From: Convolutriloba macropyga
Taxonomy: Eukaryota
Reading direction: 5' to 3'
Assembly (NCBI RefSeq): GCF_964194025.1
Contig: NC_134473.1
Coordinates: 28,892,001 to 28,956,000, forward strand
Length of the DNA: 64,000 nucleotides
Positions 1 through 46,210 of the stretch are shown piece after piece. Every line of letters begins with the position of its first letter. Within the stretch, counting starts at the first letter, position 1. Under the pieces are notes generated by a model that saw nothing but the letters and a program-made list of their open reading frames with translations, ran no database searches and had not been told where the DNA came from. The position numbers were made by a program, and so were the translations under genes.

Positions 1-565
1 GTATGAGACATCACTGCATCGTATATAATTAAAAAGATAACTCTTTAGAGCTGCGTCATGAGAATTGAACTTCTATATAAGCTAATGTTAACATAATTTG
101 ATGAATTCCTTATCAATCACGGCAACAAGATGATAAAGATATGCATCAGTTGTAATCGCAACGATATTCTATTAAAGTTTTACAACCCCGGAAGTCGCCA
201 GTGTCAGAAATTAATACGCTAGAAGGTCCTATATACTTAGCCGGACCTAGAAATTAAAACTGAATAACTCAATATTATCTTCCAGAAAAGTTTCTCAATA
301 TTATCTTCCAGCGGGACCGTCAAACGGGCTGCTTCAGCTGGTCGTGAAAGATAATAATTTCCAACCCAAAACCATCTTTGGTTTTTATTGATGTTTCACT
401 AAGAACGCTAACTTGCTCTGTTACTGGAGATGACAAACGGGGGGGGGGGGGGGGGGCTAAAAAAGCCCATTGAAAGAATTGATATTAGGATTGATCAGCT
501 ACGTCACCACCTCTTGCAAAAACCAAATCAAAAAATTTCCCAGGACTCAGGATCCTGCTATAACA

Positions 566-997
566 TGTTACAGAGGTGAATAAGAAGGAGAAAAGCAACT
601 GAATTTATGAAATGAGGTTTTAATTATGGTCGTTGGTTGTGTTCTTATCAATGGTTAGTTTATCTTGGTTCATTTTTTTACCATTTTTTCTCATCGGTTT
701 GGAATTTTCTCATGTTTAATTTAACCCGCATGTGTTCCTGTTAGTTAAATTAACAGATAACATGTTTACCTGCTTGACGAATCCCCTCAAGAACAAACAT
801 TCCTTGACGTATCCCGTCAAGGTCAAAATCCTTGACGATTCCCATCATATTTTATGATGCTTTTCCTTTTTTGTTAAAATCCGGTTTACTCTTGATTACG
901 ATCTGTTTCTGTTGCTATTATTATAAAATTTTCAAATGGTGTCTGTATTTTGTAATTTACAAGCATGTCATACGTTTTGTTCTTAGGGGTTACTACA
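566..997 (-). repeat. 3' LTR
   Basis: Starts TGTTACAGAGGTGAAT and ends TACTACA; aligns along its length with 5407-5833, with many substitutions and indels. Confidence 0.85.
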
Positions 998-1017
998 CTG
1001 CCTCCCTCTTAAAAAAA
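998..1017 (-). promoter_or_regulatory. Polypurine tract of the LTR element
   Basis: Minus strand reads ...AAGAGGGAGGCAG immediately before TGTAGTAA of the LTR. Confidence 0.7.
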
Positions 1018-1082
1018 TGAGTGTTCCACTCACTCAGAAGCACTCAGAACCAACTTTTAGTCCAAATAGTCTTCTGCTTCTT

Positions 1083-1496
1083 CTATTCCATATCTATCAC
1101 AATGTTTGGGGCTTTCTCGTCCTCCATAATGTTATTCGCCAGTAAAATAATCTTGAAAAGGTCCTCCCGACCACCCTTGCCCGGATGACACAGCAACGAC
1201 AAAGTTCTGAAGTGTTTCAGAATTGTGGTGGTTGTTGCCCCCTGAGGCAGGAACAAAAGCTCATATAGATTTGGAGGACGACTAAAAGGGCATTGTGCAT
1301 TTATTGCTTCCAGACTCCTGTGGATGACCGTTCCTGACGTCTGTTCCGTTTCCACCCTGCTTCTAAGTTTTCTGATATCTTTCTCGGCGTTCTCCAGCTC
1401 CCGAGCTAAACTCTCCCGCTCATCTACCAGAGCGAGAAATTCCTTTGTTTTGCTTTCCGCTTGGTTTTTGCCTCTTCTAATTGTCTGTTCAACATT
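1083..1496 (-). pseudogene. Coiled-coil + DnaJ (J-domain) ORF remnant inside the LTR element
   Basis: Stop-to-stop frame reads ...ERESLARELENAEKDIRKLRSRV...NLYELLFLPQGATTTTILKHFRTLSLLCHPGKGGREDLFKIILLANNIMEDEK. This fits the J-domain pattern (YxxL..A...I...YR.L....HPDK). HPG is one transition (GGC/GAC) from HPD. ORF 1692-1964 is in the same frame upstream, past in-frame stops. Confidence 0.75.
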
Positions 1497-2069
1497 TTAA
1501 CCTGCCTCCTGCAGGACTCCCACTGATTCCCAGCGTTTACTAGTAACTGTTTTGTCTCTATAAGTTGCTCGCGTAACGTTTGACCATCTAGCTTTAACTA
1601 CCAAAGCTCTTCTTTGAGCCGAAACCCTGTAGTTCCCAGCAATTCCGTGTTGTTTCTATTTCACTGCTGCTTTTCAATTTTCCGATGAAGCTCATTCAGC
1701 TTCAGCACACTGGTTTGGTTTCTCTCCACAATATTGGGGAGCTGAAGCTGCATCATTGATACCACATTTTTTTTGGACGTCACTCCGAGAATTCGATAAA
1801 CCAGTTGCCTGACTATTGACTATTCGTACAGTTCGGGTAAGTAGTAGCAGCAGTCTCCAAAATTTGGTTCTGCCATTCCTACGTATTACAAGATATAATA
1901 AAACCCTTGTATCAATTTCAATTCTGGCTATTTCGGGAAGAGATTTAGGCTTTTTTGCTTCCACAATTACAATGTTTGTGTCACCTTCACAAAATTCAAC
2001 TTTGGTCTTTTTTCTTGTCGAATTCTTCTGCCTAGAACGTTGTTTGAGATGACGAAAAATCCCTAATTC

Positions 2070-3880
2070 CCCATTGTATTAATGGTTTGCAGTACAAGTA
2101 CATGATTAGTGCGACTGCGTAGCATAGCTATTGAAAAGAACACCCGCAAGACGCAAACAATGATTTTAAATCTAATAAAAAAATCGGCAAACTAATAGTG
2201 ACCTCCCTGGCCACATGCCAGATTTAATCCACTTACTACCGAAGTAAACAAAAAATAAGATTTTGTGCCACTGGTGCCCGTATCTATGTCAATGTTGAAA
2301 TACTCTAAAGTTTCTCTTCCTGTTACTGTTTTTCTCGAAAGCCTTTACCCTTGGGCTGTCTTGCTAAGTTCAAGGTCATTGTCATTGAAAAGCCCTGCCA
2401 TTGGTGCAGTTCTTGAGCAATTGACGTTAACTTGGTGATTTGGCATGTCATCGCGCTTATCAATCAGTACTAGTCGTAGACCATATGTAATCCATGAACC
2501 GATCTGCAACTCAAGCAAGTGCGTTCGGGTACAAGGGGTTGCCATTCGTTATTGTAAAATTTCTATAGAACATTTAAAAATAGGATCCATGTATCTAATT
2601 CCTTCTGAACTGTTGTCAGAAGACATAATCAATAATTCCTCGGTACAAAACAAACTGTCTATGACAGGGACAAAAACTTTAGCGCACTTATGGACATAGA
2701 GTACTGCTCCCGCTCTTTCAACGTGCAGAGCGTTTTTTTGAATTAAGAAAACTTGCTGTGAGCTTCCATTTTCCAGTGAAGTTAGAATCATATCTCTGCA
2801 ATTTTTTTGTGATAATTTAGTAGCTCTGTTTGATTCAAATTTTTGAACATACCTCAAAAATCCCACACATAGAGTTGATCTAGCTTTGCGTCCCTGAGAT
2901 CTTTTTCAGATAAATCTTTTGGTAAAAAAATTAGGTTCCCTGATTTTCAAGGTTTCATTTGTGTAAAACTGTGTGATTAGTTGCAAAAGTTTCTGTGATT
3001 AGTTGCAAAAAGTTGAAAATCGTCTACCTGTTTGATCTTGTTTTTCATCTGAACCAATAAAATACTTTTTTGTTTAACTTGCTGGTTAAATAACTATTGT
3101 TTTCAGCAATGATTATCTTTGCTGTTGCCGAGTTCGAAAATTTAACTATCGTAAACATATTTGGTTTTGTATTTTTTTTTGTCAAATATATATTGTACTT
3201 GAACTAATTCAAATGTATCTCCCTGATATAAAAAGTTTTCTCTTGTTTCAGAGGGTCTTTAAAATATAACCAAGTTCCTTCAGTGATTTCCTGGTTTCAA
3301 TGAACAAAGTTCCTATGAAGATTTCAGCAATTATCATAATGTTACCATTTTGTTGTTCAATTTTTGAATTGATCCAGTGCAGAGGTTGGAGATAGTCCAC
3401 TCCTTTCTCATCTCCGCATTTCATAAAAGATTTTTAATAAATTCTGAACAAAATCTGAGTCACTTCCTCCACCAACGATCCTAAGTATCTCTATAGAGGC
3501 ACTGAATTCAAAGTCATTGAGTGCCGGTTACAAGACTATGTCCTTGCCATAGTTTTTGGCAGACTGATTCTTTAAAAAGATAAAACATTGTAATCATTTG
3601 TTTTCTCGTTGAGGTATGTTGCATCGTCATATCAACTACTTTTTTTCAGCGCAGTTACAGTATATGCGGCTCTGTAGATGGACTATTTCTATTTACTCAT
3701 GCTGTTCTCACAGTGCATGAGTACTCCTTGGTTTACCTGTTCCTCTTTGATACCAGACATTTTGCTCATGGTCCGTTCAGATATGGCAAATATAGCGTTT
3801 GCAGAATGTTCTCAAAGTCATGCCCCACAATCTCAAAGAATTGAGAAAAACCGAAAATACAAACCAATTGTAGAAGTTTC
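2070..3880 (-). pseudogene. Decayed envelope-like glycoprotein (gB-like/class III, chuvirus-glycoprotein-like)
   Basis: RAGAVLYVHKCAKVFVPVIDSLFCTEELL...RYMDP...C...QIGSW resembles the AGExxYxxKCxxVxV...CYxELPV...P...C...W segment of chuviral/retrotransposon gB-like glycoproteins. A hydrophobic stretch lies near 2100-2200. Position is downstream of the integrase tail. Many stops and frameshifts. Confidence 0.55.
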
Positions 3881-4469
3881 TATTTCAAATGCACGCTCCA
3901 ATTTGAGTTTCATGCCCTCTGCACTTTGTCGTATCACTTTTTTTCAGTAAAAATACGTTATTATCAAATTTTTCCTCTGAATCGTTATCCGTGAATAAAT
4001 AATAGTCTTTCAATTTCCTTAGTCTTGTTAATCCCGACACACTTATTGTTTGATGTCGTTGTTTGCTAACAATCTCCAAAGTAGAAGTCGTGCTTCTAAT
4101 TAGAAATTTTTTGCCTCCACTTCTTTCGAATGTTTTCACCAGGCTATCCTGCCTCTGCAGCGTGGCTACTTTGGTCGCATGTATCTTTGTGCTTATGCTC
4201 TTGTTCTTTGTGTTGGTAGTTATTGATTTGCGTGTACTCCCACCTCATGGTTTTTCAAAAAAATCCGCCTTGAATGTCTCATTGTGGGTTTCATTACTAA
4301 GTTAATTTGACTATTATTCCCTTTGCAATAACTTCTTTTTTTCTGTGTTAGTCAATTTTGGAGTGACTACTTCAGTTTCCACAGAATCGTTGTCTTCTGT
4401 AAAGTCATTTTGAGGTAATCTCGGTTTACTTTTTGCCTTGTTAGTTTCTTTTTTATCAGCGGTAGCACT

Positions 4470-4700
4470 TCTACAGTTAAAACGTTTGATTCGATAAAAG
4501 AGGACATTTTTGTTTTTTTTGTTTTAACTCCTTTAATAACAAAGTTAAGATCGTTGAATATTTCACGTAATACTTGTGGTCCACTATAGAAGGATTTATA
4601 TTTCTTTCCGATTTGGATTTGCTTTCCCGTGCCATTTGATGGCACGTTTCTAGTTCCTCTTTCAAGCAACCAACTTAACCAGTTAAGGTCGGGTAGATTT
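4470..4700 (-). pseudogene. Integrase C-terminal (GPY/F) remnant
   Basis: KKYKSFYSGPQVLREIFNDLNFVIKGVKTKK followed by LFYRIKRFN in another frame; resembles K..P.W.GPY.I......Y.I......VH..RLK.F. Confidence 0.6.
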
Positions 4701-5406
4701 TGGTTTGTATTGTTTGTTCGTTTACAGCATAATTATACCGCATTTTTATGGTTTTGGTTGTTTTCGTTTTGCGCTCGTACACAACTCAAAATAACAACTA
4801 GGACCACAAAAAAATTATTGGTCGAAACTAACAAAACGACCGAAGTGGTGCGCACAATAAGTTATCAACAACAACACAACTGCGCAAAGTTGTTAATTCT
4901 ACCCACTTGATATGTTGTACTCTTTTTCAACACTTTAATTCTCTTTTCCACAAACGAGTAAAAGATAGCTCCCACACGAGTAAAATCTCACCAGGGGTTT
5001 CAATAGGAAACTGATATTCGTAGAAATACGGTACCAGTAACGTATGCGAGAACAATGAAGAGCTGATTTGGATTCTGATTTGTTATCCCTAGTCGTGTTG
5101 TTTTTCAAAAGTTATTTCGGTCCCGATTTGTTTTCTCGAATTAAACTGCGTTTCCTATTTGTCTTCATACCGAAAATTTTTTAAAAAATTGGTTTAGTGT
5201 ATATTAAATCTCTGTTCCCAGTATAATATCCGCGCACTTTATGCTTATACGGTTTTGGTTGGCGGTTTCTTAAAGCACTTTACTTCTCATCTGTAAGCTG
5301 CAGAAAATGTTCCAGATCACAGACTTCATTTAAATTGCGAACTAAAAAATTTCAGTGAATGTTACAGAGTGAAATTAATTATTATTGAAAAAATTTGTAA
5401 AACATT

Positions 5407-5833
5407 TGTTACAGAGGTGAATATGAAGGAGTGTTATTGCTTATGAGAAAATCGTCTACAACTAAGAGTTGAGAATTTAATTACGGTCGTTGGTTGCGGT
5501 TATATCAATGGTTAATATATCTTGATTTTTTTGCCAATTTCTCTAATCGGTTTGAGATTTTCTCATGTTTCTCATACCCGCATGGCTCCCTGTTAGTTAA
5601 ACTAGGAAATAACAGGTTTACCTGCTTGACGAATCCCGTCAGGAACACTTATTCTTTGACGTATCCCGTCAGGGTCAAAATCCGTGATGATCCCCATAAT
5701 TCATGATGCTTTCCTTTTGTTTTGCCTAAATCCGGTATACTCTTGATTACAATCTGTTTCTGATCCTATTACTAGATTTAAAATTTTGGAATGGTGTCTG
5801 TATTTGTACGTTCTGTTCTTTGGGAATACTACA
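5407..5833 (-). repeat. 5' LTR (second LTR copy)
   Basis: TGTTACAGAGGTGAAT...GAATACTACA; homologous to 566-997. Confidence 0.85.
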
Positions 5834-20479: not shown

Positions 20480-23400
20480 TTCGTCACTTCCAATCCTGTG
20501 CCAACAAAAAAACTGAAAAAAAAAGAAATATATATTACACTTGCCACATCTGAAAACCATTTTAAATTCGATTTGAGGAGAATCTGTCAGTTTTTTAGCT
20601 ATCTTTCATTTATGAGATTTTTTATTGTGTACGACCTATATTCAATTGACTTTTCTTTGAATTTTTTTGCAAGCTTCGATGAAACAAAAAGATTTTTGTC
20701 CGTCGAAAAGAATTCTTTTTTTCGTGTCCAATTTAGGTTTAATTTGTTGTACATATAAAGTGAATTTAAATGTATCAATAATGATGTCCAGTATCGAATC
20801 TGACTCCACTAATTGTGTACCATTGACATTGTCTAAACTGTTTAAAGAACCCAGCACAAAATCTGATTTTGAAGCATTCATGAGTTCATTGTTTTCATTT
20901 TTAGCTTTATAGTCAACAATTTTTATCGGCCCTTTTTAAAGCTTTCAAAATTACTGATTGGGGTATTTTGAATCCAAGTGATGCTAAACTCTAGGCTTTT
21001 TACGATGATATATTCAAACAAATGCAAATGTAAGACCTGCCGTACAAAATTTTTTTCACACTGCTATTATAGTCCTGCGATATCGAAGTAAATTCGTCAC
21101 TTCCAATCCTGTGCCAACAAAAAAAACTGAAAAAAAAGAAATATTCATTACACTTGCCACATCTGAAAACCATTTTAAATTCGATTTGAGGAGAATCTGT
21201 CAGTTTTTTAGCTATCTTTTATTTATGAGCTTTTTTATTGTGTACGACCTATATTCAATTGACTTTTCTTTGAATTTTTTTGCAAGCTTTGATGAAACAA
21301 AAAGATTTTTGTCAATCGAAAAGAATTCTTTTTTTCGTGTCCAATTTAGGTTTAATTTGTTGTACATATAAAGTGAATTTAAATGTATCAATAATGATAT
21401 CCAGTATCGAATCTGACTCCACTAATTGCGTACCATTGGCATTGTTTAAATTGTCTAAAGAACCCAGCACAAAATCTGATTTTGAAGCTTTCATGAGTTC
21501 ATCGTTTTCATTTTTAGCTTTGTAGTCAACAATTTTTATCGGCCCTTCTTAAAGCTTTCAAAATTACTGATTGGGGTATTTTGAGTCCAATTGATGCTAA
21601 ACTCTAGGCTTTTTACGATGATATATTCAAACAAATGCAAATGTAAGACCTGCCGTACAAAATATTTTTCAGACTGCTATTATAGTCCTGCGATATTGAA
21701 GTAAATTCGTCACTTCCAATCCTGTGCCAACAAAAAAACTGAAAAAAAAGAAATATTCATTACACTTGCCACATCTGAAAACCATTTTAAATTCGATTTG
21801 AGGAGAATCTGTCAGTTTTTTAGCAATCTTTCATTTATGAGCTTTTTTATTGTGTACGACCTATATTCAATTGACTTTTCTTTGAATTTTTTTGCAAGCT
21901 CTGATGAAACAAAAAGATTTTTGTCAATCGAAAAAAATTATTTTTTTCGTGTCCAATTTAGGTTTAATTTGTTGTACATATAAATTGAATTTAAATGTAT
22001 CTATAATGATATCGAGTATCGAATCTGACTCCACTAATTGTGTACCATTGACATTGTCTAAACTGTTTAAAGAACCCAGCACAAAATCTGATTTTGAAGC
22101 ATTCATGAGTTCATTGTTTTCATTTTTAGCTTTGTAGTCAACAATTTTTATCGGCCCTTTTTAAAGCTTTCAAAATTACTGATTGGGGTAATTTGAATCC
22201 AAGTGATGCTAAACTCTAGGCTTTTTACGATGATATATTCAAACAAATGCAAATGTGAGACCTGCCGTACAAAATATTTTTCACGCTGCTATTATAGTCC
22301 TGCGATATCGAAGTAAATTTGTCACTTCCAATCCTGTGCCAACAAAAAAACTGAAAAAAAAAGAAATATTCATTACACTTGCCACATCTGAAAACCATTT
22401 TAAATTCGATTTGAGGAGAATCTGTCATTTTTTTAGCTATCTTCTATTTATGAGCTTTTTTATTGTGTACGACCTATATTCAATTGACTTTTCTTTGAAT
22501 TTTTTTGCAAGCTTTGATGAAACAAAAAGATTTTTGTCAATCGAAAAGAATTTTTTTTTTCGTGTCCAATTTAGGTTTAATTTGTTGTACATATAAAGTG
22601 AATTTAAATGTATCAATAATGATATCCAGTATCGAATCTGACTCCACTAATTGTATACCATTGACATTGTCTAAACTGTTTAAAGAACCCAGCACAAAAT
22701 CTGATTTTGAAGCATTCATGAGTTCATTGTTTTCATTTTTAGCTTTGTAGTCAACAATTTTTATCGGCCCTTTTTAAAGCTTTCAAAATTACTGATTGGG
22801 GTATTTTGAATCCAAGTGATGCTAAACTCTAGGCTTTTTACGATGATATATTCAAACAAATGCAAATGTAAGACCCGCCGTACAAAATATTTTTCACACT
22901 GCTATTATAGTCCTGCGATATCGAAGTAAATTCGTCACTTCCAATCCTGTGCCAACAAAAAAACTGAAAAAAAGAAATATTCATTACACTTGCCACATCT
23001 GAAAACCATTTTATATTCGATTTGAGGAGAATTTGTCAGTTTTTTAGCTATCTTTCATTTATGAGCGTTTTTTTATTGTGTACGACTTATATTCAATTGA
23101 CTTTTCTTTGAATTTGTTTGCAAGCTTTGATGAAACAAAAAGATTTTTGTCAGTCGAAAAAATTATTTTTTTCGTGTCCAATTTAGGTTTAATTTGTTGT
23201 ACATATAAATTGAATTTAAATGTATCTATAATGATATCGAGTATCGATTCTGACTCCACTAATTGTGTACCATTGACATTGTCTAAACTGTTTAAAGAAC
23301 CCAGCACAAAATCTGATTTTGAAGCATTCATGAGTTCATTGTTTTCATTTTTAGCTTTGTAGTCAACAATTTTTATCGGCCCTTTTTAAAGCTTTCAAAA

Positions 23401-26400
23401 TTACTGATTGGGGTAATTTTAATCCAAGTGATGCTAAACTCTAGGCTTTTTACGATGATATATTCAAACAAATGCAAATGTAAGACCTGCCGTACAGAAT
23501 ATTTTTCACGCTGCTATTATAGTCCTGCGATATCGAAGTAAATTCGTCACTTCCAATCCTGTGCCAACAAAAAAACTGAAAAAAAAAGAAATATTCATTA
23601 CACTTGCCACATCTGAAAACCATTTTAAATTCGATTTGAGGGGAATCTGTCATTTTTTTAGCTATCTTTTATTTATGAGCTTTTTTATTGTGTACGACCT
23701 ATATTCAATTGACTTTTCTTTGAATTTTTTTGCAAGCTTTGATGAAACAAAAAGATTTTTGTCAATCGAAAAAATTATTTTTTTCGTGTCCAATTTAGGT
23801 TTAATTTGTTGTACATATAAATTGAATTTAAATGTATCTATAATGATATCGAGTATCGATTCTGACTCCACTAATTGTGTACCATTGACATTGTCTAAAC
23901 TGTTTAAAGAACCCAGCACAAAATCTGATTTTGAAGCATTCATGAGTTCATTGTTTTCATTTTTTAGCTTTGTAGTCAACAATTTTTATCGGCCCTTTTT
24001 AAAGCTTTCAAAATTACTGATTGGGGTAATTTGAATCCAAGTGATGCTAAACTCTAGGCTTTTTACGATGATATATTCAAACAAATGCAAATGTAAGACC
24101 TGCCGTACAAAATATTTTTCACGCTGCTATTATAGTCCTGCGATATCGAAGTAAATTCGTCACTTCCAATCCTGTGCCAACAAAAAAACTGAAAAAAAGA
24201 AATATTCATTACACTTTCCACATCTGAAAACCATTTTAAATTCAATTTGAGGAGAATCTGTCATTTTTTAGCTATCTTTTATTTATGAGCTTTTTTATTG
24301 TGTACGACCTATATTCAATTGACTTTTCTTTGAATTTTTTTGCAAGCTTTGATGAAACAAAAAGATTTTTGTCAATCGAAAAGAATTCTTTTTTTCGTGT
24401 CCAATTTAGGTTTAATTTGTTGTACATATAAAGTGAATTTAAATGTATCAATAATGATATCCAGTATCGAATCTGACTCCACTAATTGTGTACCATTGAC
24501 ATTGTCTAAACTGTTTAAAGAACCCAGCACAAAATCTGATTTTGAAGCATTCATGAGTTCATTGTTTTCATTTTTAGCTTTGTAGTCAACAATTTTTATC
24601 GGCCCTTTTTAAAGCTTTCAAAATTACTGATTGGGGTATTTTGAATCCAAGTGATGCTAAACTCTAGGCTTTTTACGATGATATATTCAAACAAATGCAA
24701 ATGTAAGACCTGCCGTACAAAATTTTTTTCAGACTGCTATTATAGTCCTGCAATATCGAAGTAAATTTGTCACTTCCAATCCTGTGCCAACAAAAAAACT
24801 GAAAAAAAAGAAATATTCATTACACTTGCCACATCTGAAAACCATTTTAAATTCGATTTGAGGAGAATCTGTCAGTTTTTTAGCTATCTTTTATTTATGA
24901 GCTTTTTTATTGTGTACGACCTATATTCAATTGACTTTTCTTTGAATTTTTTTGCAAGCTTTGATGAAACAAAAAGATTTTTGTCAATCGAAAAGAATTC
25001 TTTTTTTCGTGTCCAATTTAGGTTTAATTTGTTGTACATATAAATTGAATTTAAATGTATCTATAATGATATCGAGTATCGATTCTGACTCCACTAATTG
25101 TGTACCATTGACATTGTCTAAACTGTTTAAAGAACCCAGCACAAAATCTGATTTTGAAGCATTCATGAGTTCATTGTTTTCATTTTTTAGCTTTGTAGTC
25201 AACAATTTTTATCGGCCCTTTTTAAAGCTTTCAAAATTACTGATTGGGGTAATTTGAATCCAAGTGATGCTAAACTCTAGGCTTTTTACGATGATATATT
25301 CAAACAAATGCAAATGTAAGACCTGCCGTACAAAATATTTTTCACGCTGCTATTATAGTCCTGCGATATCGAAGTAAATTCGTCACTTCCAATCCTGTGC
25401 CAACAAAAAAACTGAAAAAAAGAAATATTCATTACACTTTCCACATCTGAAAACCATTTTAAATTCGATTTGAGGAGAATCTGTCAGTTTTTTAGCTATC
25501 TTTTATTTATGAGCTTTTTTATTGTGTACGACCTATATTCAATTGACTTTTCTTTGAATTTTTTTGCAAGCTTTGATGAAACAAACAGATTTTTGTCAAT
25601 CGAAAAGAATTCTTTTTTTCGTGTCCAATTTAGGTTTAATTTGTTGTACATATAAATTGAATTTAAATGTATCTATAATGATATCGAGTATCGATTCTGA
25701 CTCCACTAATTGTGTACCATTGACATTGTCTAAACTGTTTAAAGAACCCAGCACAAAATCTGATTTTGAAGCATTCATGAGTTCATTGTTTTCATTTTTT
25801 AGCTTTGTAGTCAACAATTTTTATCGGCCCTTTTTAAAGCTTTCAAAATTACTGATTGGGGTAATTTGAATCCAAGTGATGCTAAACTCTAGGCTTTTTA
25901 CGATGATATATTCAAACAAATGCAAATGTAAGACCTGCCGTACAAAATATTTTTCACGCTGCTATTATAGTCCTGCGATATCGAAGTAAATTCGTCACTT
26001 CCAATCCTGTGCCAACAAAAAAACTGAAAAAAAGAAATATTCATTACACTTTCCACATCTGAAAACCATTTTAAATTCAATTTGAGGAGAATCTGTCATT
26101 TTTTAGCTATCTTTTATTTATGAGCTTTTTTATTGTGTACGACCTATATTCAATTGACTTTTCTTTGAATTTTTTTGCAAGCTTTGATGAAACAAAAAGA
26201 TTTTTGTCAATCGAAAAGAATTCTTTTTTTCGTGTCCAATTTAGGTTTAATTTGTTGTACATATAAAGTGAATTTAAATGTATCAATAATGATATCCAGT
26301 ATCGAATCTGACTCCACTAATTGTGTACCATTGACATTGTCTAAACTGTTTAAAGAACCCAGCACAAAATCTGATTTTGAAGCATTCATGAGTTCATTGT

Positions 26401-29400
26401 TTTCATTTTTAGCTTTGTAGTCAACAATTTTTATCGGCCCTTTTTAAAGCTTTCAAAATTACTGATTGGGGTATTTTGAATCCAAGTGATGCTAAACTCT
26501 AGGCTTTTTACGATGATATATTCAAACAAATGCAAATGTAAGACCTGCCGTACAAAATTTTTTTCAGACTGCTATTATAGTCCTGCAATATCGAAGTAAA
26601 TTTGTCACTTCCAATCCTGTGCCAACAAAAAAACTGAAAAAAAAGAAATATTCATTACACTTGCCACATCTGAAAACCATTTTAAATTCGATTTGAGGAG
26701 AATCTGTCAGTTTTTTAGCTATCTTTTATTTATGAGCTTTTTTATTGTGTACGACCTATATTCAATTGACTTTTCTTTGAATTTTTTTGCAAGCTTTGAT
26801 GAAACAAAAAGATTTTTGTCAATCGAAAACAATTCTTTTTTTCGTGTCCAATTTAGGTTTAATTTGTTGTAAATATAAAGTGAATTTGAATGTATCAATA
26901 ATGATATCCAGTATCGAATCTGATTCCACTAATTGTGTACCATTGACATTGTCTAAACTGTTTAAAGAACCCAGCACAAAATCTGATTTTGAAGCTTTCA
27001 TGAGTTCATCGTTTTCAGTTTTAGCTTTGTAGTCAACAATTTTTATCGGCCCTTCTTAAAGCTTTCAAAATTACTGATTGGGGAATTTTGAATCCAAGTG
27101 ATGCTAAACTCAAGGCTTTTTACGATGATATATTCAAACAATTGCAAATGTAAGACCTGCCGTACAAAATATTTTTCACACTGCTATTATAGTCCTGCGA
27201 TATCGAAGTAAATTCGTCACTTCCAATCCTGTGCCAACAAAAAAACTGAAAAAAAAAGAAATATATATTACACTTGCCACATCTGAAAACCATTTTAAAT
27301 TCGATTTGAGGAGAATCTGTCAGTTTTTTAGCTATCTTTCATTTATGAGATTTTTTATTGTGTACGACCTATATTCAATTGACTTTTCTTTGAATTTTTT
27401 TGCAAGCTTTGATGAAACAAAAAGATTTTTGTCAGTCGAAAAGAATTCTTTTTTTCGTGTCCAATTTAGGTTTAATTTGTTGTGCATATAATGTGAATTT
27501 AAATGTATCAATAATGATGTCCAGTATCGAATCTGACTCCACTAATTGTGTACCATTGACATTGTCTAAACTGTTTAAAGAACCCAGCACAAAATCTGAT
27601 TTTGAAGCATTCATGAGTTCATTGTTTTCATTTTTGGCTTTGTAGTCAACAATTTTTATCGGCCATTTTTAAAGCATTCAAAATTACTGATTGGGGTATT
27701 TTGAATCCAAGTGATGCTAAACTCTAGGCTTTTTACGATGATATATTCAAACAAATGCAAATGTAAGACCTGCCGTACAAAATTTTTTTCACACTGCTAT
27801 TATAGTCCTGCGATATCGAAGTAAATTCGTCACTTCCAATCCTGTGCCAACAAAAAAACTGAAAAAAAAGAAATATTCATTACACTTGCCACATCTGAAA
27901 ACCATTTTAAATTCGATTTGAGGAGAATCTGTCAGTTTTTTAGCTATCTTTTATTTATGAGCTTTTTTATTGTGTACGACCTATATTCAATTGACTTTTC
28001 TTTGAATTTTTTTGCAAGCTTTGATGAAACAAAAAGATTTTTGTCAATCGAAAAGAATTCTTTTTTTCGTGTCCAATTTAGGTTTAATTTGTTGTACATA
28101 TAAAGTGAATTTAAATGTATCAATAATGATATCCAGTATCGAATCTGACTCCACTAATTGTGTACCATTGACATTGTCTAAACTGTTTAAAGAACCCAGC
28201 ACAAAATCTGATTTTGAAGCTTTCATGAGTTCATCGTTTTCAGTTTTAGCTTTGTAGTCAACAATTTTTATTGGCCCTTCTTAAAGCTTTCAAAATTACT
28301 GATTGGGGTATTTTGAATCCAAGTGATGCTAATTTCTAGGCTTTTTACGATGATATATTCAAACAAATGCAAATGTAAGACCTGCCGTACAAAATATTTT
28401 TCACACTGCTATTATAGTCCTGCGATATCGAAGTAAATTCGTCACTTCCAATCCTGTGCCAACAAAATAACTGAAAAAAAAAGAAATATTCATTACACTT
28501 GCCACATCTGAAAACCATTTTAAATTCGATTTGAGGAGAATCTGTCATTTTTTAGCTATCTTTTATTTATGAGCTTTTTTATTGTGTACGACCTATATTC
28601 AATTGACTTTTCTTTGAATTTTTTTGCAAGCTTTGATGAAACAAAAAATTTTTGTCAATCGAAAAGAATTCTTTTTTCGTGCCCAACTTAGGTTTAATTT
28701 GTTGTACATATAAAGTGAATTTAAATGTATCAATAATGATATCCAGTATCGAATCTGACTCCACTAATTGTGTACCATTGACATTGTCTAAACTGTTTAT
28801 AGAACCCAGCACAAAATCTGATTTTGAAGCTTTCATGAGTTCATCGTTTTCAGTTTTAGCTGAGTAGTCAACAATTTTTATCGGCCCTTCTTAAAGCTTT
28901 CAAAATTACTGATTGGGGTATTTTGAATCCAAGTGATGCTAAACTCTAGGCTTTTTACGATGATATATTCAAACAAATGCAAATGTAAGACCTGCCGTAC
29001 AAAATATTTTTCACACTGCTATTATAGTCCTGCGATATCGAAGTAAATTCGTCACTTCCAATCCTGTGCCAACAAAAAAACTGAAAAAAAAAGAAATATT
29101 CATTACACTTGCCACATCTGAAAACCATTTTAAATTCGATTTGAGGAGAATCTGTCAGTTTTTTAGCTATCTTTCATTTATGAGATTTTTTATTGTGTAC
29201 GACCTATATTCAATTGACTTTTCTTTGAATTTTTTTGCAAGCTTTGATGAAACAAAAAGATTTTTGTCAATCGAAAAGAATTCTTTTTTTCGTGTCCAAT
29301 TTAGGTTTAATTTGTTGTACATATAAAGTGAATTTAAATGTATCAATAATGATATCCAGTATCGAATCTGACTCCACTAATTGTGTACCATTGACATTGT

Positions 29401-30010
29401 CTAAACTGTTTAAAGAACCCAGCTCAAAATCTGATTTTGAAGCATTCATGAGTTCATTGTTTTCATTTTTAGCTTTGTAGTCAACAATTTTTATCGGCCC
29501 TTTTTAAAGCTTTCAAAATTACTGATTGGCGTATTTTGAATCCAAGTGACGCTAAACTCTAGGCTTTTTACGATGATATATTCAAACAAATGCAAATGTA
29601 AGACCTGCCGTACAAAATATTTTTCACACTGCTATTATAGTCCCGCGATATCGAAGTAAATTCGTCACATCCAATCCTGTGCCAACAAAAAAACTGAAAA
29701 AAAGAAATATTCATTACACTTGCCACATCTGAAAACCATTTTATATTCGATTTGAGGAGAATCTGTCAGTTTTTTAGCTATCTTTCATTTATGAGCGTTT
29801 TTTTATTGTGTACGACTTATATTCAATTGACTTTTCTTTGAATTTTTTTGCAAGCTTTGATGAAACAAAAAGATTTTTGTCAATCGAAAAAATTATTTTT
29901 TTTGTGTCAAATTTAGGTTTAATTTGTTGTACATATAAATTGAATTTAAGTGTATCTATAATGATATCGAGTATCGAATGTGACTCCACTAATTGTGTAC
30001 CATTGACATC
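20480..30010 (-). repeat. 612-bp tandem array, ~15.6 highly similar copies; monomer derived from a decayed PLE RT core
   Basis: Identical ORF translations recur every 611-613 bp in the ORF track. The minus strand holds RT-like remnants in order: TQLVESDS..(D-K-S-L-Y region), TIKKLIN/TMKRPLN, LLRYRRTII (RYVDD position), LASLG (AFLD position), IRFCAG (F.SC thumb). Confidence 0.95.
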
Positions 30011-30816
30011 AATGTTACATTTCAAACCTTTGCAGAAAGCAGAACGCAATGTGTCGGTTTTCAATCCATTCTCCGAGATTAAACATCTTATGGACGGTTC
30101 GCATATTACAACAAAATCTAATACCTATATAATTTTCCGCGAAAATTTGGAAAGTTTTTATTTTCACGAATCTTAAAAAATCTGTCTGCTTCAGTCTCTG
30201 CTTAAAAGTTGCCAGCCAGATTCAGATGTACTCAAAACCAAAGGGTAGTCTTTATTGTCTTGCGCACTTGCTTTGTTTAGAAGAAAGTTGATGTCTTTTT
30301 TTATTGCGTCTTTTTCGTTGGTCCAAAAACATGATGGTCAGGGATATTTTCTAGAAATTGCCTAAGGAACCCAGCACAAAATCTGATTTTGAACCTTCTA
30401 TGAGTTCAAAGTTTCCTTTGTTAGTTTTGTAGTCAAAAATTTTTATCGATTCTACTTAAAGCTTACAAAGTTTTATTGAATCCAAGGGATGCTAAATTCT
30501 AGGCTTTTTCCGATGATATATTCAAGCAAATGCAATTGTAAGACCTGCCGGGGAAAAGAGTTTTCACACTGCTATTTTAGTTTTCCTGCTGAACAATATT
30601 TTATTTCGACACTTTCAATCCTGCGCCAACAAAAAATTGAAATAAAAAAATGAACAGTATACTTGTAACATCTGAAGATCATTTTTAATTCAATTTGAAG
30701 AGAATTTGTCAGTTTTGTAGCCATTTTGCATTCAGAGGCCTTTTCTTTGTGTGGGACCTATATTCTTTTGACTTTTCCTTCTATTTTCTGACATGCTAGA
30801 AAAGAATTTGTTTTTA

Positions 30817-30973: not shown

Positions 30974-31604
30974 CTTTTTTAAATAAAACGAAGCGTTCGT
31001 CTCCATGTTAGGTTAAATTTGATGTACAAATAAAGTGATTTTAAACGTATCTAAATTCTTATCAAGTTAAGAATCTGACTCCATTAATTGCGCCCATTAA
31101 CATCGAAACCTATACAAAAACTTAACTCATCTTAAAACTTTACAAAACTAAAAAGTTTGGAACCAAGAAAACCACAGTTTTCGAAACTCTGGATATTATT
31201 TTTTCCACCATCCATCAGTTGATTTTTCGTTTTCCCCATGTTAACTTGGGGAGCATGAGAGCATGAGACCGATTACTAGTAGATGTGTTGCTTTCAAAAC
31301 AATCTCGAATAAAAGAATAGCCAAACTATCGATGGTATTGCATCTTTAACATAAAACGTTTTACATGAGTTGGAATTTGAAGTGTTTTATCTCCACTGTA
31401 AAAACCTTATAGAATCCCTTTGCTGTATTTAATGTCTTGTAGCAGGTTTACTTTTATCATAAGAGAATCACGGTAAAAATGAAAAATGAGTATATATTAA
31501 ACTAAGCAAAGGTTCCTGCTTTTGTTCTGTAGAATAGTTTGCGCTCGTAAATGTCATCTACCGCGCTACATTGAAGTTCTAATTAACTACATTTGGTTCA
31601 ATGC

Positions 31605-31713
31605 GGATCTTTTCCGTTTGTTATCATTTCCGTTTGTGCCCCCCTTATTATTTGCAACCGCAGACACGTTCTGAGGCATAACGTTCTGAGGGGAGCACAA
31701 ACGGAAAAGATCT
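31605..31713. mobile_element. GGATC-TIR MITE
   Basis: GGATCTTTTCCGTTTG...CACAAACGGAAAAGATCT; flanks TTCAATGC/TGCAATGC. Confidence 0.85.
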
Positions 31714-33758
31714 TGCAATGCTTTTCATGAAGCTAAAAACAATTTTTCAGTTTCACTTCAGTTCTCCTGTATCAAGTCTAGCATGAAATTTTAATAATTC
31801 AAGACAAACTATAAAATCTACATTGTTTCCTAATTTCCAGCAAGAGCAAAAGTTTGACGAGCCAACGACATGAATCTCTACCGGGGAGCTAACCTTCTAG
31901 TGTTCATAAACTTGCTTGGATAGATGTAAATTATTTTGACCACATTTTTAAATATATTGCATTAGATTATAAAGCATTTTCATAGGACGACTACAGAGAG
32001 ATTTTGTTTAGTTAGTGAGACATTTTGTTTAGTTAACTTCATATAAAACCCTCAGAAAATTGACAGATACATCTTGAGCTGAAAAAATTGTGTTTTCTCG
32101 ACACTTAAGTATAATAATATCAGTTTTGCTCTGAATCTTTTTTTCCCAGTTTCAGATTTTTGATGCTTTTGAATGGTGGTTTAACGCATAGTTGCGTTTA
32201 ATGCTTCATAACGGGCTTAATCCTATTATGTCAACTGGAAAAAAACTTCTTCTTATGTCTTAGAGTACAGTTATAGCTACCGCGTTACATTAATGTTACA
32301 AGGAGCTACATACATTTCAAAAAATTTTTAGAAACAAAAAGCAGTATTTTGGTATGAATTCCATACTCTGATTAAACATCCTGTAGACGAATCTCAATTC
32401 ATCTAAAATCTAATGCCTACAATAATTTCCTCCGAAAATTTGGACAGTTACTATATTTCATGAATCTTAAAAAATCTGCTGTCTGTTTTTAATCTCTGCT
32501 TCAAAATTGGCAATAAGCACGCACTGTATTTACTATTAAATCACGTATATTTTAAGCTGCAAGAGGTTAGTCGACATTTCAATTTTCATTTTGTGAAATC
32601 GGTAAAATTATCTCAAGATCTTGAGTGTTGCCTCTTGAGCTGTAAAATTTGTGTTTCCTCGATATTTAGGAATGGTTTTTATCAGTTTTTCCTCTAGAGC
32701 TTTTTTTTCTCTTGGTTTCTAATTTTTGGTCTTTTTAAATGGTTGCTGATTTATATAAATTGATCTAAAATCTATTTACAATATCATCAAAAAAAATTGA
32801 TTATCCGAATTGAGTCAAAATTACATTGAATTTTTTAATCTACACAACTAATATCTATTTTGGAAAAAAATTAACTTACAAATCAAAAAATTTATTTGAG
32901 ACATTGAACATTCGAATTTTGAAGCTATTGATTCTGTGGTTTCCTCCCTCGTCCAAAAACATATGATAGCTTGTGGATTGTAGGATTGATAAACAGTCGC
33001 TATGTCAATGTCAACAAAACGTTTTGAAAAAAAATTATGGCCAAACTGTCATGTTTTAACTAATAAAAAAATTTGATTTATTTTTCCCCCTCTTGTAATC
33101 CTAGCCGGTTTCAGCTTAATGGGGGTAAAAAATTTCAATATTCATAAGTTCTTCAATTCCATTAAGAGCCTCTGGTTTGTCCCACTAAAATTTATGAATT
33201 CCGTGACATCCTTCAATGGGTTGCTGCCTCTCCTACTGACACCTTTTTGCCTGGCCAAATTCAATTTAGGCCAAATTCAATGGCACTGCATTTATAGTTA
33301 TAAAATCTCATATATTGTGCTTCATAGAGGTTCCAGTGAAATACATACAATTAAAAACACTTTTCAAGAATTGATAAATGGTATTGTAGATTCAGATAAA
33401 TTCTCGTGTTTCAAATTTACAAAAAAATCTATTAGTCGATAACAAATTCTAACATCTACAATCATTTCATTCCAAATTGGCAATAAATTTCAAATTTGCA
33501 ATCAGTTGCCTTAAAATTGTTAAACAAATCACAAGGGTTTGACAGCTTTCTCTTTACCTGTAATTTTTTGTTCCCCGGTGTTGGAGATTAGTCTTTACTG
33601 TTTTTGCTCATTTTTGCATTGCCTCTCTTTCTCCGGTTTTTGAATGCTTTTAGATGATTGTTTGACTATTTTTTTAATCGCATCATTAAAAATCCTTTAT
33701 TTTATAAGCGTTCCTGAAATTGACATTTTATCCAAAATAACATCGTTTTCTGTAATTG

Positions 33759-34542
33759 CCCGGGTTAAAGTTTCTTTGATTTCATACAAGGATCATATAT
33801 GATTTCATACTGTCCATACTTGATTTCTTAGTACGATCCTTGTATAAAACCAAAGAAATCATATATGATCCTTGTATGATTACCAAGAAATCAGATATGA
33901 TCCTAGTACGAATACCAAGAATCATAAATCTATTTTTTGAAAATCTTTAACCATTTATGTTTGCTTGTTTTTCTTCGGTAGGGTGTCGCCTATAGGATAC
34001 CCCGGCATCAAAGTGTGATCCATCAAAAGACCCTAACGTACAATATCAATTGCAAGATGGGCACAAAATAAAAGAGTAAGTCCAAACAGATAGCAAACTT
34101 TTTGACATATTCTGAAGTTAGTTTATACATATAAATATTCATTTATAAAAAAAATAATCAAGAAAAAAATTGCATTCACGTCAAATTTAATTTCTGAATA
34201 CGTTTAAACCACAAAGTTGTTCATTTAGCGCACACAAAGAATCAAATGTGGATTGCAAATGCGATATAGTAATTTAATAAGTCCTCTGACTACATTATAC
34301 GAGAATTTGTGGCACCAGTCAATATATTATGTGTCAAGTATGACCTTGTATGATATCCATGAAATTATTTCAACTTCTATGGAAAATCAAAATTATACAG
34401 TTTTTAGTCTTTGAATTTTTTTGTATGGTCCTTGTATGACTACCAAGAATTCATACGAATCATATATGACCTAGTACGATTACTAAGAATCATAAATGAC
34501 CTAGTACGAAATCAAAGAAAGTTGTATGATCGTTGACCCGGG
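33759..34542. mobile_element. Non-autonomous CCCGGG-ended DNA transposon (CMC/EnSpm-like)
   Basis: Termini CCCGGGTTAAAG...TTGACCCGGG; TG 2-bp TSD; ~30 bp ATATGATCCTTGTATGATTACCAAGAAATC subterminal repeats. The empty site matches the paralogous PLE at ~18880-18920. Confidence 0.85.
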
Positions 34543-35139
34543 TGCTTCACTAAACACCGCATGTATTTGTGGTTCAAATTTCTGATGAAAAGTTTAATTA
34601 AGTGAAACTTTTCGAAACTTGGCCAGGGTAACCAGCACAAAATCTCGTGGCAAACCCTGTATGTGTTCAGATTAACCTGTTTTAGCATTGTATTAGTCAA
34701 CAACGAATGTCGGTTCTTCGGTAAACTTCTCTGTACAACTACTCGGTTCTACAGTAAACAAAACTAACTCAGTTATTTGGAATCCCAAGGAATGCTAGTG
34801 TCTAGGCGTCATCCGATAATAGATTCAATTAAATGTATATACTTCACTAGGAAAACTTGCCGAAAAAATCTTTTTTAAGCTGCTGTAACTGTATTGCGGC
34901 AAAATACTAAATTAACTTCTACACTTCCGATCATACGACCACAGAAAAATTAAAAGTAAAAACACACAGGACACTCGCAACATCTCAAAAATATTTTTTA
35001 TCTCAATTTGAGAGGAATTCAACAATTTTTTAACCATGTTTCATTGAAGGGTCTTCCATTGGATGCGACCCAAATCCAGTTTTTTTATTTTCTTTGATGT
35101 TTTGAGATGAAAAGGTTCTGAAAATTGAAAAAAATTGTG

Positions 35140-35301
35140 GGATCTTTTCGGTTTGTGCCCTCCCCTTAGTGCGTTATGCCTTCCGCGTTATGGAGCAAAT
35201 GTGATTACGTAAGAAACACATGTGTAAAAATTTGGTACCAAGTTTGAGTAGCCCAAACAATATTTGCCCACTAAACGGGGGTGCACAAACGGAAAAAATC
35301 T
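35140..35301. mobile_element. GGATC-TIR MITE
   Basis: GGATCTTTTCGGTTTGTGCCC...GTGCACAAACGGAAAAAATCT. Confidence 0.8.
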
Positions 35302-36800
35302 TTTTTTTAAAACTAAAATGAATGTTTTCTGAATAAAGAATTGGGTTGGCTTCTTGTTAAGTTAAAACTGATGTACAAATAAAATCTGAGTCTGAATTGT
35401 ACTCAAAAGGTCATGGGATCAATTATTCTGATTCTAAGAATTGCGTCGAATTAACATCTAAATCTTGCATATCTACAATTTACATCACTTTTTAAAAATA
35501 AATTAAACTATCAAAAATAGTTTTGAGACCCTAAAAATCACAGTTTTTGAAGCTTCGAATGTTATTTTTTCCCGCTTTGCTTCAAATGATATGCTGTATT
35601 CTTAAACAAAAACTTTTTAAAAAAATGATAGCCATGTTATCTAATTATAACAATATAAAGTCTTAGAGATAACGCCACCTCTCTGATGTTCCAATCACAT
35701 GTTCAATGCAAGATTCAACTTAATGGTATAATTGAATTCAAATGTGCGATAACCTTCAAAAGGGTGCTGCCCCATCGGCGAAACCCCCTTACTTCGATCA
35801 TCTGAAATCCTGTAGGCAAAATTGTATGTGGTATGGGTGAATTAAATTGATTTTCAATCTATAAGCATGTAATATTTGGAAAAAAAGTTTGTTTCTTCTC
35901 GAATTTTGATTTCAAAAAGTTTGATTTTGCCCCAAAACCTCATACACCAGTTTGTTCTTGTAAAATGCTGCATTAAAGTTCCAACCAACTAATTACATTT
36001 CAATAGATTTCAGGAAGACAAAAACATTTTTTTAGTTTTCAGTTCTCCTGTAACATGCCTAGTAAAATTAAATCTAAATTTTCAAGATAAAAATTTAAAG
36101 ATAAAAAAAGCCTGGGGCCGTACAAGATATAAGACCACTAAGCTGGGGGGCCAGAAAAAGCATAGATCACTTTTTTAAATAAAACGAAGCGTTCTTCTCC
36201 ATGTTAGGTTAAATTTGATGTACAACTAAAGTGATTTTAAACGTATCTAAATTCTTATCAAGTTAAGAATCTGATTCCATTAATTGCGCCCATTAACACC
36301 AAAATCTATACAAAAACTTAACTCATCTTAAAACTTTACAAAAATAAAAAGTTTGGAACCAAGAAAACCACAGTTCTCGAAACTCTGGATATTATTTTTT
36401 CCACCATCCATCAGTTGATTTTTCGTTTTCCCCATGTTAACTTGGGGAGCATGAGAGCATGAGACCGATTACTAGTAGATGTGTTGCTTTCAAAACAATC
36501 TCGAATAAAAGAATAGCCAAACTATCGATGGTATTGCATCTTTAACATAAAACGTTTTACATGAGTTGGAATTTGAAGTGTTTTATCTCCACTGTAAAAA
36601 CCTTATAGAATCCCTTTGCTGTATTTAATGTCTTGTAGCAGGTTTACTTTTATCATAAGAGAATCACGGTAAAAATGAAAAATGAGTATATATTAAACTA
36701 AGCAATGGTTTCTGCTTTTGTTCTGTAGAATAGTTTGCGCTCGTAAATGTCATCTACCGCGCTACATTGAAGTTCTAATGAACCACATTTGGTTCAATGC

Positions 36801-36909
36801 GGATCTTTTCCGTTTGTTATCATTTCCGTTTGTGCCCCCCATATTATTTGCAACCGCAGACACGTTCTGAGGCATAACGTTCCGAGGGGAGCACAAACGG
36901 AAAAGATCT
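36801..36909. mobile_element. GGATC-TIR MITE (duplicate of 31605-31713)
   Basis: Same TIRs and flanks, within the tandem duplication. Confidence 0.85.
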
Positions 36910-38954
36910 TGCAATGCTTTTCATGAAGCTAAAAACAATTTTTCAGTTTCACTTCAGTTCTCCTGTATCATGTCTAGCATGAAATTTTAATAATTCAAGA
37001 CAAACTATAAAATCTACATTGTTTCCTAATTTCCAGCAAGAGCAAAAGTTTGACGAGCCAACGACATGAATCTCTACCGGGGAGCTAACCTTCTAGTGTT
37101 CAAAAACTTGCTTGGATAGATGTAAATTATTTTGACCACATTTTTAAATATATTGCATTAGATTATAAAGCATTTTCATAGGACAACTACAGAGAGATTT
37201 TGTTTAGTTAGTGAGACATTTTGTTTAGTTAACTTCATATAAAACCCTCAGAAAATTGACAGATACATCTTGAGCTGAAAAAATTGTGTTTTCTCGACAC
37301 TTAAGTATAATAATATCAGTTTTGCTCTGAATCTTTTTTTCCCAGTTTCAGATTTTTGATGCTTTTGAATAGTGGTTTAACGCATAGTAGCGTTTAATGC
37401 TTCATAGCGGGCTTAATCCTATTATGTCAACTGGAAGAAAACTTCTGCTTATGTCTTAGAGTACAGTTATAGCTACCGTGTTACATTAATGTTACAAGGA
37501 GCTACATACATTTCCAAAAAATTTTAGAGACAAAAAGCAATATTTTGGTATGAATTCCATTCTCCGATTAAACATCCTGTAGACGAATCTCAATTCATCT
37601 AAAATCTAATGCCTACAATAATTTCCTCCGAAAATTTGGACAGTTACTATATTTCATGAATCTTAAAAAATCTGCTGTCTGTTTTTAATCTCTGCTTCAA
37701 AATTGGCAATAAACATGCACTGTATTTACTATTAAATCACGTATATTTTAAGCCGTAAGAGGTTAGTCGACATTTCAACTTTCATTTTGTGAAATCGGTA
37801 AAATTATCTCAAGACCTTGAGTGTTGCCTCTTGAGCTGTAAAATTTGTGTTTCCTCGATATTTAGGAATGGTTTTTATCAGTTTTTCCTCTAGAGCTTTT
37901 TTTTCTCTTGGTTTCTAATTTTTGGTCTTTTTAAATGGTTGCTGATTTATATAAATTGATCTAAAATCTATTTACAATATCATCAAAAAGAATTGATTAT
38001 CCGAATTGAGTCAAAATTACATTGAATTTTTTAATCTACACAACTAATATCTATTTTGGAAAAAAATTAACTTACAAATCAAAAAATTTATTTGAGACAT
38101 TGAACATTCGAATTTTGAAGCTATTGATTCTGTGGTTTCCTCCCTCGTCCAAAAACATATGATAGCTTGTGGATTGTAGGATTGATAAACAGCCGCTATG
38201 TCAATGTCAACAAAACGTTTTGAAAAAAAATTACGGCCAAATTGTCATGTTTTAACTTATAAAAATATTTGATTTATATTTCCCCCTCTTGTAATCCTAG
38301 CCGGTTTCAGCTTAATGGGGGTAAAAAATTTCAATATTCATAAGTTCTTCAATTCCATTAAGAACCTCTGGTTTGTCCCACTAAAATTTATGAATTCCGT
38401 GACAACATTCAATGGGTTGCTGCCTCTCCTTCTGACACCTTTTTGCCTGGTCAAATTCAATTTAGGCCAAGTTCAATGGCACTGCATTTATAGTCACAAA
38501 ATCTCATATATTGTGCTTCATAGAGGTTCCAGTGAAATACATACAATTAAAAACACTTTTCAAGAATAGATAAATGGTATTGTAGATTCAGATAAATTCT
38601 CGTGTTTCAAATTTACAAAAAAATCTATTAGTCGATAACAAATTCTAACATCTACAATCATTTCCTTCCAAATTGGCAATAAATTTCAAATTTGCAATCA
38701 GTTGCGTTAAAATTGTTAAACAAATCACAAGGGTTTGACAGCTTTCTCTTTACCTGTAAATTTTTGTTCCCCGGTGTTGGAGATTAGTCTTTACTGTTTT
38801 TGCTCATATTTGCATTGCCTCTCTTTCTCCGGTTTTTGAATGCTTTTAGATGATTGTTTGACTATTTTTTTAATCGCATCATTAAAAATCCTTTATTTTA
38901 TAAGCGTTCCGGAAATTGACATTTTATCCAAAATAACATCGTTTTCTGTAATTG

Positions 38955-40188: not shown

Positions 40189-40350
40189 GGATCTTTTCGG
40201 TTTGTGCCCTCCCCTTAGTGCGTTATGCCTTCCGCGTTATGGAGCACATGTGATTACGTAAGAAACACATGTGTAAAAATTTGGTACCAAGTTTGAGTAG
40301 CCCAAACAATATTTGCCCACTAAACGGGGGTGCACAAACGGAAAAAATCT
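40189..40350. mobile_element. GGATC-TIR MITE (duplicate of 35140-35301)
   Basis: Same sequence, within the tandem duplication. Confidence 0.8.
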
Positions 40351-46057: not shown

Positions 46058-46210
46058 GGATCTATTCTGTTTTGGCCACCCAGCTTAGTGGGCTTATATT
46101 TTTTACGGCCTCTGGCGCACGTGCTATTTTCTACAAAATTATTTGCTATATAACAACATATAATTTATAACAGGCGGCGTAAAAAACACTGGGGGGAACA
46201 GAATAGATTC
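46058..46210. mobile_element. MITE, GGATCTATTCTGTT subfamily
   Basis: TAAAAAAG [GGATCTATTCTGTT...AACAGAATAGATTC] TAAAAACG. Confidence 0.85.

Follow-up and report, generated by a model that had tools for sequence, protein, structure and literature searches.

The window analysed here, a 64 kb stretch of the Convolutriloba macropyga genome (NC_134473.1, positions 28,892,001 to 28,956,000), carries on its minus strand an old copy of a Ty3/gypsy long terminal repeat (LTR) retroelement that is dead and internally deleted. Between the remnant of its envelope gene (env, 3924-1899) and the polypurine tract (PPT, 1010-998) that abuts the 3′ LTR at 997 lies a fourth open reading frame (ORF), ORF4, encoding a coiled coil followed by a J-domain, where a first-pass annotation of the sequence had placed it. 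ORF4 is an accessory gene maintained by selection on the replicating element, and its conserved layout together with this selection bears out that annotation's suggestion of an endogenous enveloped lineage with an accessory fourth ORF. The features of the window copy are:

5222..5833, minus strand, 5′ LTR of about 610 bp, matching the 3′ LTR at 338 of 404 positions (83.7%)
5206..5220, minus strand, decayed stretch resembling a primer-binding site (PBS), similar in position and sequence to the TGG-starting stretch after the 5′ LTR of younger copies
4717..5205, minus strand, 5′ leader, shortened by a large internal deletion
3940..4716, minus strand, 3′ remnant of pol (integrase C-terminus), 84-88% to the integrase end of younger copies; inner boundary approximate
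1899..3924, minus strand, broken env for a gB-like (Monjiviricetes-type) fusion glycoprotein, alignable over its full length, in 26 blocks, with the 686-residue Env of younger copies
1044..1876, minus strand, broken ORF4, with predicted Tudor/SH3-like barrel, coiled coil and J-domain; 280 residues in open copies
1725..1870, minus strand, predicted N-terminal β-barrel of ORF4, codons ~3-50, boundaries approximate; predicted local distance difference test (pLDDT) 83-92 over residues 1-50
1290..1700, minus strand, coiled-coil region of ORF4, residues ~59-197, boundaries approximate; a single continuous helix in the model
1113..1271, minus strand, J-domain, with motif CHPGKGG at 1190-1170
998..1010, minus strand, PPT, directly adjoining the 3′ LTR, an arrangement shared with younger copies
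559..997, minus strand, truncated 3′ LTR, ~435 of 610 bp; its local alignment with the 5′ LTR stops near 559

The end of the 5′ LTR was set by its resemblance to the LTR/PBS junction of younger copies, and the domain structure of ORF4 was modelled on an open family copy rather than on the window copy. With its two LTRs agreeing at 338 of 404 positions, the window copy is considered old. The deletion at 4717 removed gag, protease, reverse transcriptase (RT), RNase H and most of integrase; other old copies align up to this position and then continue, with a gag match in the locus in 8 of 11. A spliced retrocopy was ruled out, as the deletion junction is not of the GT..AG type. The pol of younger copies has both rve and Integrase_p58_C at its integrase end, and the window's env fragment matches PF24664 only weakly (E 0.035).

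ORF4 of the window copy begins with an ATG at 1876, ends with a stop at 1046-1044 and occupies two main frames; it is disrupted by three frameshifts (near 1471, 1102 and 1050) and four in-register stops (near 1822, 1663, 1600 and 1059). The minus-strand frame from 1086 to 1496 encodes a coiled coil and then the J-domain, and matches the DnaJ profile PF00226 at 30.2 bits (cut-off 27.8; E 5e-7). The first-pass annotation described one frame broken by stops within 1083..2050. The stops are present, but the reading shifts between frames; the span does hold the J ORF, but its part from 1899 to 2050 is the end of env. Likewise, the coiled coil and J-domain were recognized, but the N-terminal β-barrel was overlooked. 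The motif of the window copy reads HPG, while HPD is intact in 32 of 50 copies of the family to which it belongs (family A).

Conservation of the layout and selection on ORF4

Younger family A copies have the layout LTR-gag-pol-env-ORF4-PPT-LTR and measure ~10.1-10.3 kb in undisturbed cases, as seen in the upstream stretches of 12 loci. Their domains follow the order gag with CCHC knuckle, protease, RT, RNase H, integrase, env and ORF4; the protease-RT-RNase H-integrase order is common to families A and B, and matches to Pfam RT_RNaseH, Integrase_H2C2 and Integrase_p58_C fit the gypsy placement. The 617-bp LTRs are 95-98% alike in 8 of the 12 pairs examined, and a 4-bp target-site duplication was found in 4 of 5 elements checked. 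Family A Env (686 residues) matches PF24664 at 51-54 bits, and family A ORF4 matches PF00226 at 47-52 bits. A DNA search with the J region, in which 40 of 479 candidates were scored, yielded 30 loci, all with ORF4, although this set was selected on ORF4 itself. The younger set was collected with an env/integrase query that excluded ORF4, taking 20 of 28 near-full-length matches: ORF4 lies between env and the PPT in all 20, and is fully open, at 280 residues, in 7. The genome holds at least 138 ORF4 matches: a protein search scored 138 of its 1,963 candidates, and every one of these matched. ORF4 also occurs in a tandem duplication of five copies at 1.8-2.3 kb spacing (C10:58954437-58963035), and as partial tandem repeats at a further locus (L016).

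A HMMER search over 1.84 billion representatives found distant full-length relatives, which served as queries to uncover two further families in this genome. In family B, env precedes ORF4 at 16 of 20 loci (env and pol together at 15), and in family C at 10 of 10 (pol at 6), one of 11 family C stretches having been excluded because it overlapped another. Sequence identity between the three families is 69-78% for RT-RNase H, 27-38% for env and 26-31% for ORF4, and A is nearest to C in all three genes, as expected for joint inheritance. The gag-pol-env-J layout that the first-pass annotation put forward is thus conserved in three divergent families. Env exceeds the PF24664 cut-off in each (A 53.5, B 41.6 and C 68.7 bits); at the threshold used, a C-terminal hydrophobic segment was detected in Env of A and only an N-terminal one in Env of B. 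ORF4 of B and C scores 60 and 37 bits against PF00226, so that the profile check succeeded in the window copy and in all three families. Although ORF4 has diverged this far, HPD is present in 19 of 20 B copies and 5 of 10 C copies, in addition to those of family A; the C copies are old and decayed throughout. In some B loci (e.g. L078:7399-7560) env and ORF4 are separated by a short tandem repeat whose copy number varies.

The barrel-coil-J order recurs in the outside relatives P0180, P0201, P0190, P0163, P0183, P0220 and P0363-P0366. The best full-length matches in this genome reach at most 38% for P0180, 36% for P0201 and 34% for P0190, and these three are assigned to other genomes because nothing closer over full length exists here. 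A metagenome scan with P0183 for the genomic context of the relatives confirmed none of 358 candidates. P0211 and P0353 are 41-42% alike to family B and may represent a fourth ORF4 lineage.

Selection was gauged from pairwise Nei-Gojobori distances as net divergence between groups of 8, 4, 8 and 27 copies, 3 of 30 old copies having been left out as near-sisters. A tree of the 50 family A copies separates the old copies from two younger subfamilies. Between the latter, the net ratio of nonsynonymous to synonymous divergence (dN/dS) of ORF4 is 0.097 (bootstrap over codons 0.045-0.179), and between young and old groups it is 0.071-0.089; the young pair carries the weight, since raw dS values of 1.0-1.7 bring any comparison with old copies close to saturation. 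By part, the net ratio is 0.055-0.063 for the J-domain, 0.04-0.10 for the barrel and 0.11-0.15 for the coil; when the young subfamilies are compared, constraint is tightest on the J-domain. In that same comparison env gives 0.127 and pol 0.024-0.030, while shifted frames give 1.8-2.0 and two antisense frames 1.4 and 2.9; the low value of a third antisense frame, 0.16, probably stems from a shared wobble position. Within groups of decaying copies the ratio is 0.5-0.7 rather than 1, probably owing to transition bias and skipped stops. Purifying selection, for which the first-pass annotation had proposed a test, is therefore evident between groups.

These data bear directly on the alternative that ORF4 is a passenger, a host DnaJ gene captured once and drifting neutrally. 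LTR elements do pick up host sequence, and single copies do decay neutrally, as seen within subfamily M, where the three codon positions differ about equally often (506/603/560). Between subfamilies, however, third positions are in excess (1218/1272/3597), and ORF4 occupies the identical position in three families; the J-domains of ORF4 also stand apart from the host's own, and the barrel profile matches none of the 18 host J-gene loci. The layout and the selection data refute a neutral one-off capture, which we consider scarcely credible.

A second alternative holds that ORF4 is a coiled-coil structural protein of the particle whose J-domain no longer works with Hsp70. The coiled coil makes up half of ORF4, the predicted dimer interface takes in parts of the J-domain, and the HPD count in family C is low. 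Those copies are old and decayed, however; HPD is the commonest state in A, B and C and also occurs in full-length relatives outside this genome, and between the young subfamilies the constraint is strongest in the J-domain itself. We regard a purely structural role as very improbable.

Predicted fold of ORF4 and ancestry of its J-domain

Three parts are predicted with high confidence for ORF4: a Tudor/SH3-like barrel at the N-terminus, a stalk of ~140 residues forming a coiled coil, and a J-domain at the C-terminus. The AlphaFold2 model of an open family copy, built on a 13-row alignment, has four strands within residues 9-42, one helix spanning 59-197, and a J-domain with a tail helix; its mean pLDDT of 90.8 and predicted template modelling score of 0.39 indicate that the domains are confident and their relative arrangement is not. 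The J part superimposes on Sis1 with Z 11.2 (root-mean-square deviation (rmsd) 2.7, 75 residues aligned). The barrel is closest to Tudor and PWWP domains, namely PHF20 Tudor 2 (Z 8.4, rmsd 1.2, 47 aligned; VIA-align), TDRD3 (8.2), the PWWP domain of Shuguo (8.2) and SMN (7.8), with an rmsd of 1.1-1.7 to several Tudor domains. The barrel of the unrelated restriction enzyme Hpy99I scores on par with these (Z 7.9), and for this reason we describe the ORF4 barrel only as Tudor/SH3-like; the structural-comparison tool itself cautions that Z near 8 may reflect a common arrangement. Profile and sequence searches gave no Tudor match for ORF4, the barrel as a sequence query found nothing significant among solved structures, and atlas searches returned nothing at or above 0.9 for the whole of ORF4 and no usable match for the barrel. 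In PHROGs, only the J-domain and coiled coil were matched. Folded alone without an alignment, the barrel reached a pLDDT of 49, so its predicted fold depends on the 13-row alignment model.

Two copies of ORF4 are predicted to form a parallel, in-register coiled-coil dimer with a score of 0.42 (best of three controls, 0.00), at least 83% contact agreement between runs and a pLDDT of at least 76. Among solved microbial structures, 21 of 30 homodimers and 0 of 23 monomers reach the mark applied; the eukaryotic figures are 17 of 29 and 0 of 30. A search for hydrophobic segments in ORF4 of families A, B and C found none.

The likeness of the barrel to reader domains raises the possibility that ORF4 is a counter-defence adaptor, in which the barrel would bind a silencing component (methylated PIWI or Argonaute tails, methylated histones or a nuage protein) and the J-domain would bring Hsp70 to unload or remodel it. 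According to the available text of one source, methylated PIWI is bound by Tudor proteins, and Argonaute loading is governed by Hsp70 and J-proteins (PMC12908457). The best structural matches outside the J-domain are the Tudor and PWWP readers just described, and ORF4 diverges between families as fast as env does. Against this stand the equal score of Hpy99I, the strong purifying selection on the barrel, with no sign of an arms race, and the state of its putative aromatic cage. Canonical Tudor cages have two aromatic residues in the loop after the third strand; compared by eye with this layout, the aligned ORF4 rows have no aromatic residue there, and the cage appears incomplete. That an old enveloped lineage encodes a dimeric Tudor-like/J adaptor steering Hsp70 to dismantle PIWI/Argonaute complexes or marked chromatin is a tentative proposal, which we think unlikely.

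In a tree, the ORF4 J-domains cluster together, separate from 18 J-domains of the host and 36 generic ones, with 100/100 support that is rough because few columns were available. The tree comprised 67 rows and 72 columns without a T antigen row, and included long branches, one miscut row and a bootstrap that had not settled. The first-pass annotation had proposed a tree against host DnaJ; this one resolved no donor. As no donor was found among the 18 host J loci either, recent capture of a host DnaJ gene was rejected. A host-type J-domain gene lies ~2 kb from one ORF4 copy (C1:22623753-22626562), probably by chance, because its J-domain groups apart from ORF4.

The first-pass annotation also hinted, from CHPGKGG being one transition from HPDKGG, at a tie to polyomavirus T antigens. 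This tie is not supported: of the 36 generic J-proteins retrieved by the searches, 25 have HPDKGG, so that the motif is no pointer to polyomaviruses, family B has HPDAGG, and no T antigen appears among the matches listed (in one listing, the best 60 of 156). A polyomavirus origin is therefore unsupported.

Candidate function and related systems

ORF4 very probably recruits Hsp70, by analogy with other J-proteins. It would act in the cytosol or nucleus, since it has no signal or membrane segment, and would dimerize through the modelled coiled-coil stalk. Its HPD loop would stimulate host Hsc70/Hsp70 while the barrel binds a client, as J-protein biology suggests, and Hsp70 would thereby be delivered to one chosen complex. 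The likeliest client, and the weakest step of this scheme, is by analogy the element's own Gag particle or ribonucleoprotein (RNP), at assembly, egress or uncoating in an env-dependent cycle. We rank the element's own particle first because ORF4 travels with env in three families and because viral J-proteins serve virion production; counter-defence takes second place. As a whole, the explanation that ORF4 is a selected J-protein adaptor whose client is the Gag particle or RNP has, in our estimate, a little better than an even chance of being correct.

The message for such a protein is probably a spliced subgenomic RNA. This fits the AG signals ahead of ORF4 and the way in which LTR elements usually express their 3′ ORFs, which the available text of the rotifer study discussed below describes as typically made from spliced RNA (PMC5408684). 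In families A and B, an AG with a G after it occupies a matching codon position ahead of a conserved P-x-I-G motif; in family B no in-frame ATG precedes this motif. In family C, the ORF4 ATG directly follows a T-rich tract and an AG. Contigs from four RNA runs cover the whole element, and none of the 15 joints listed (of 181) ends at the ORF4 start, which speaks neither for nor against splicing.

Several observations weigh against the Gag-client explanation. ORF4 was found in none of seven stretches from other multicopy elements of this genome with gB-like glycoproteins, and is not mentioned in the available text of a survey of 1,512 env-bearing gypsy elements (PMC13524379), so that an enveloped cycle does not generally need an ORF4-type gene. 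The predicted Tudor-like fold suits a host client no less well, and the coiled-coil dimer may score through likeness to, or memory of, solved coiled coils. In none of the loci examined in families A, B and C are pol, env and ORF4 all open, so the elements may now be inactive.

The other gB-like elements have features of their own. One multicopy group (C6:25235500-25243500 (L148), L149, L150, L154 and many more) has a gB-like ORF of 898-902 codons and, on either side of it, several small ORFs (100-280 codons), some of which seem to be paralogues; the stretches examined contain no family A pol or env match and no J ORF, and the group resembles a complex element rich in accessory genes. In a second (C10:8008500-8016500 (L151), L152 and L153) a PAN-domain ORF lies upstream of a 769-codon gB-like ORF, and the small ORFs downstream include two cysteine-rich ones, one of them with a RING-finger match. 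Elsewhere in the window, a tandem array of ~16 units of 612-613 bp, mostly 95-99% alike, occupies 20480-30170, and nested direct and inverted duplications in blocks of 0.3-1.2 kb (93-98% identity) at 31259-48873 have sequence in common with it.

The closest described elements are the Ty3/gypsy 'ancient errantiviruses' with HSV/gB-type Env (Chary and Hayashi, eLife 2026, PMC13524379), which, in the available text, share the LTR-gag-pol-env and RT-RNase H-integrase orders, a gB-like class III glycoprotein, multicopy occurrence and an invertebrate host; the elements studied here add a fourth ORF after env. The main text of that paper contains no mention of DnaJ, J-domain, chaperone or Hsp70, and its seven supplements, searched to 400 characters per cell, contain no DnaJ, motif or acoel names. 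Bdelloid rotifer LTR retrotransposons, likewise Ty3/gypsy-like, carry a non-env 3′ accessory ORF (ORF3) that is family-specific, typically made from spliced RNA and encodes GDSL esterases, DEDDy exonucleases, or coiled-coil or transmembrane proteins (Rodriguez et al. 2017, PMC5408684); the available text does not mention DnaJ or chaperones. In contrast, ORF4 is additional to env and is a J-protein.

Among viruses, baculovirus BJDP is also a stand-alone J-protein of an enveloped invertebrate virus, although of a DNA virus, and contains a coiled coil. It gives only a weak structural match to ORF4 (rank 45, E 0.015, 19% identity). BJDP is virion-associated and required for virion production, according to the available text of PMC4825930. 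In polyomaviruses, the available text of PMC5721967 describes a T antigen J-domain with HPDKGG that binds Hsc70, and a need for the J-domain in capsid assembly in vivo. The J-domain of large and small T antigen is N-terminal on a helicase or phosphatase-binding protein, whereas that of ORF4 is C-terminal on a barrel and coil. The T antigen logic of a client-binding part joined to a J-domain (PMC5721967, available text) also inspires another alternative, in which ORF4 would bring Hsp70 to some other host complex of the cell cycle, stress response or trafficking, as T antigen does with Rb-E2F. The matches listed show no T antigen kinship in sequence or fold, and we judge this alternative improbable.

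Cellular class C J-proteins such as auxilin combine a client-binding domain with a J-domain and lack the G/F and zinc regions of classes A and B. ORF4 resembles them in this respect but differs in its barrel-coil-J order, which no cellular protein among the matches listed in the protein and structure searches shares. We found no LTR element with a J-domain ORF in the literature searched, which did not extend to subscription journals, Repbase entries or the eLife figures and code archive; in the available text of PMC9940879 the sole DnaJ passage concerns gene names. Extra 3′ ORFs are known from rotifers and J-proteins from DNA viruses, while the position of ORF4 after env and its barrel-coil-J architecture were not found in that literature and appear to be new.

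In conclusion, envelope-bearing gypsy elements are usually described as having three genes, gag, pol and env, and here a fourth has been kept, under selection as strong as that on env, across families whose ORF4 proteins have little more than a quarter of their residues in common. If the proposed function is correct, this would be a retroelement that brings an Hsp70 adaptor of its own, as polyoma- and baculoviruses are known to do. Through one small, soluble protein, two questions become testable: at which step of its cycle an invertebrate retroelement depends on directed chaperone activity, and whether elements of this kind code for suppressors of small-RNA silencing.
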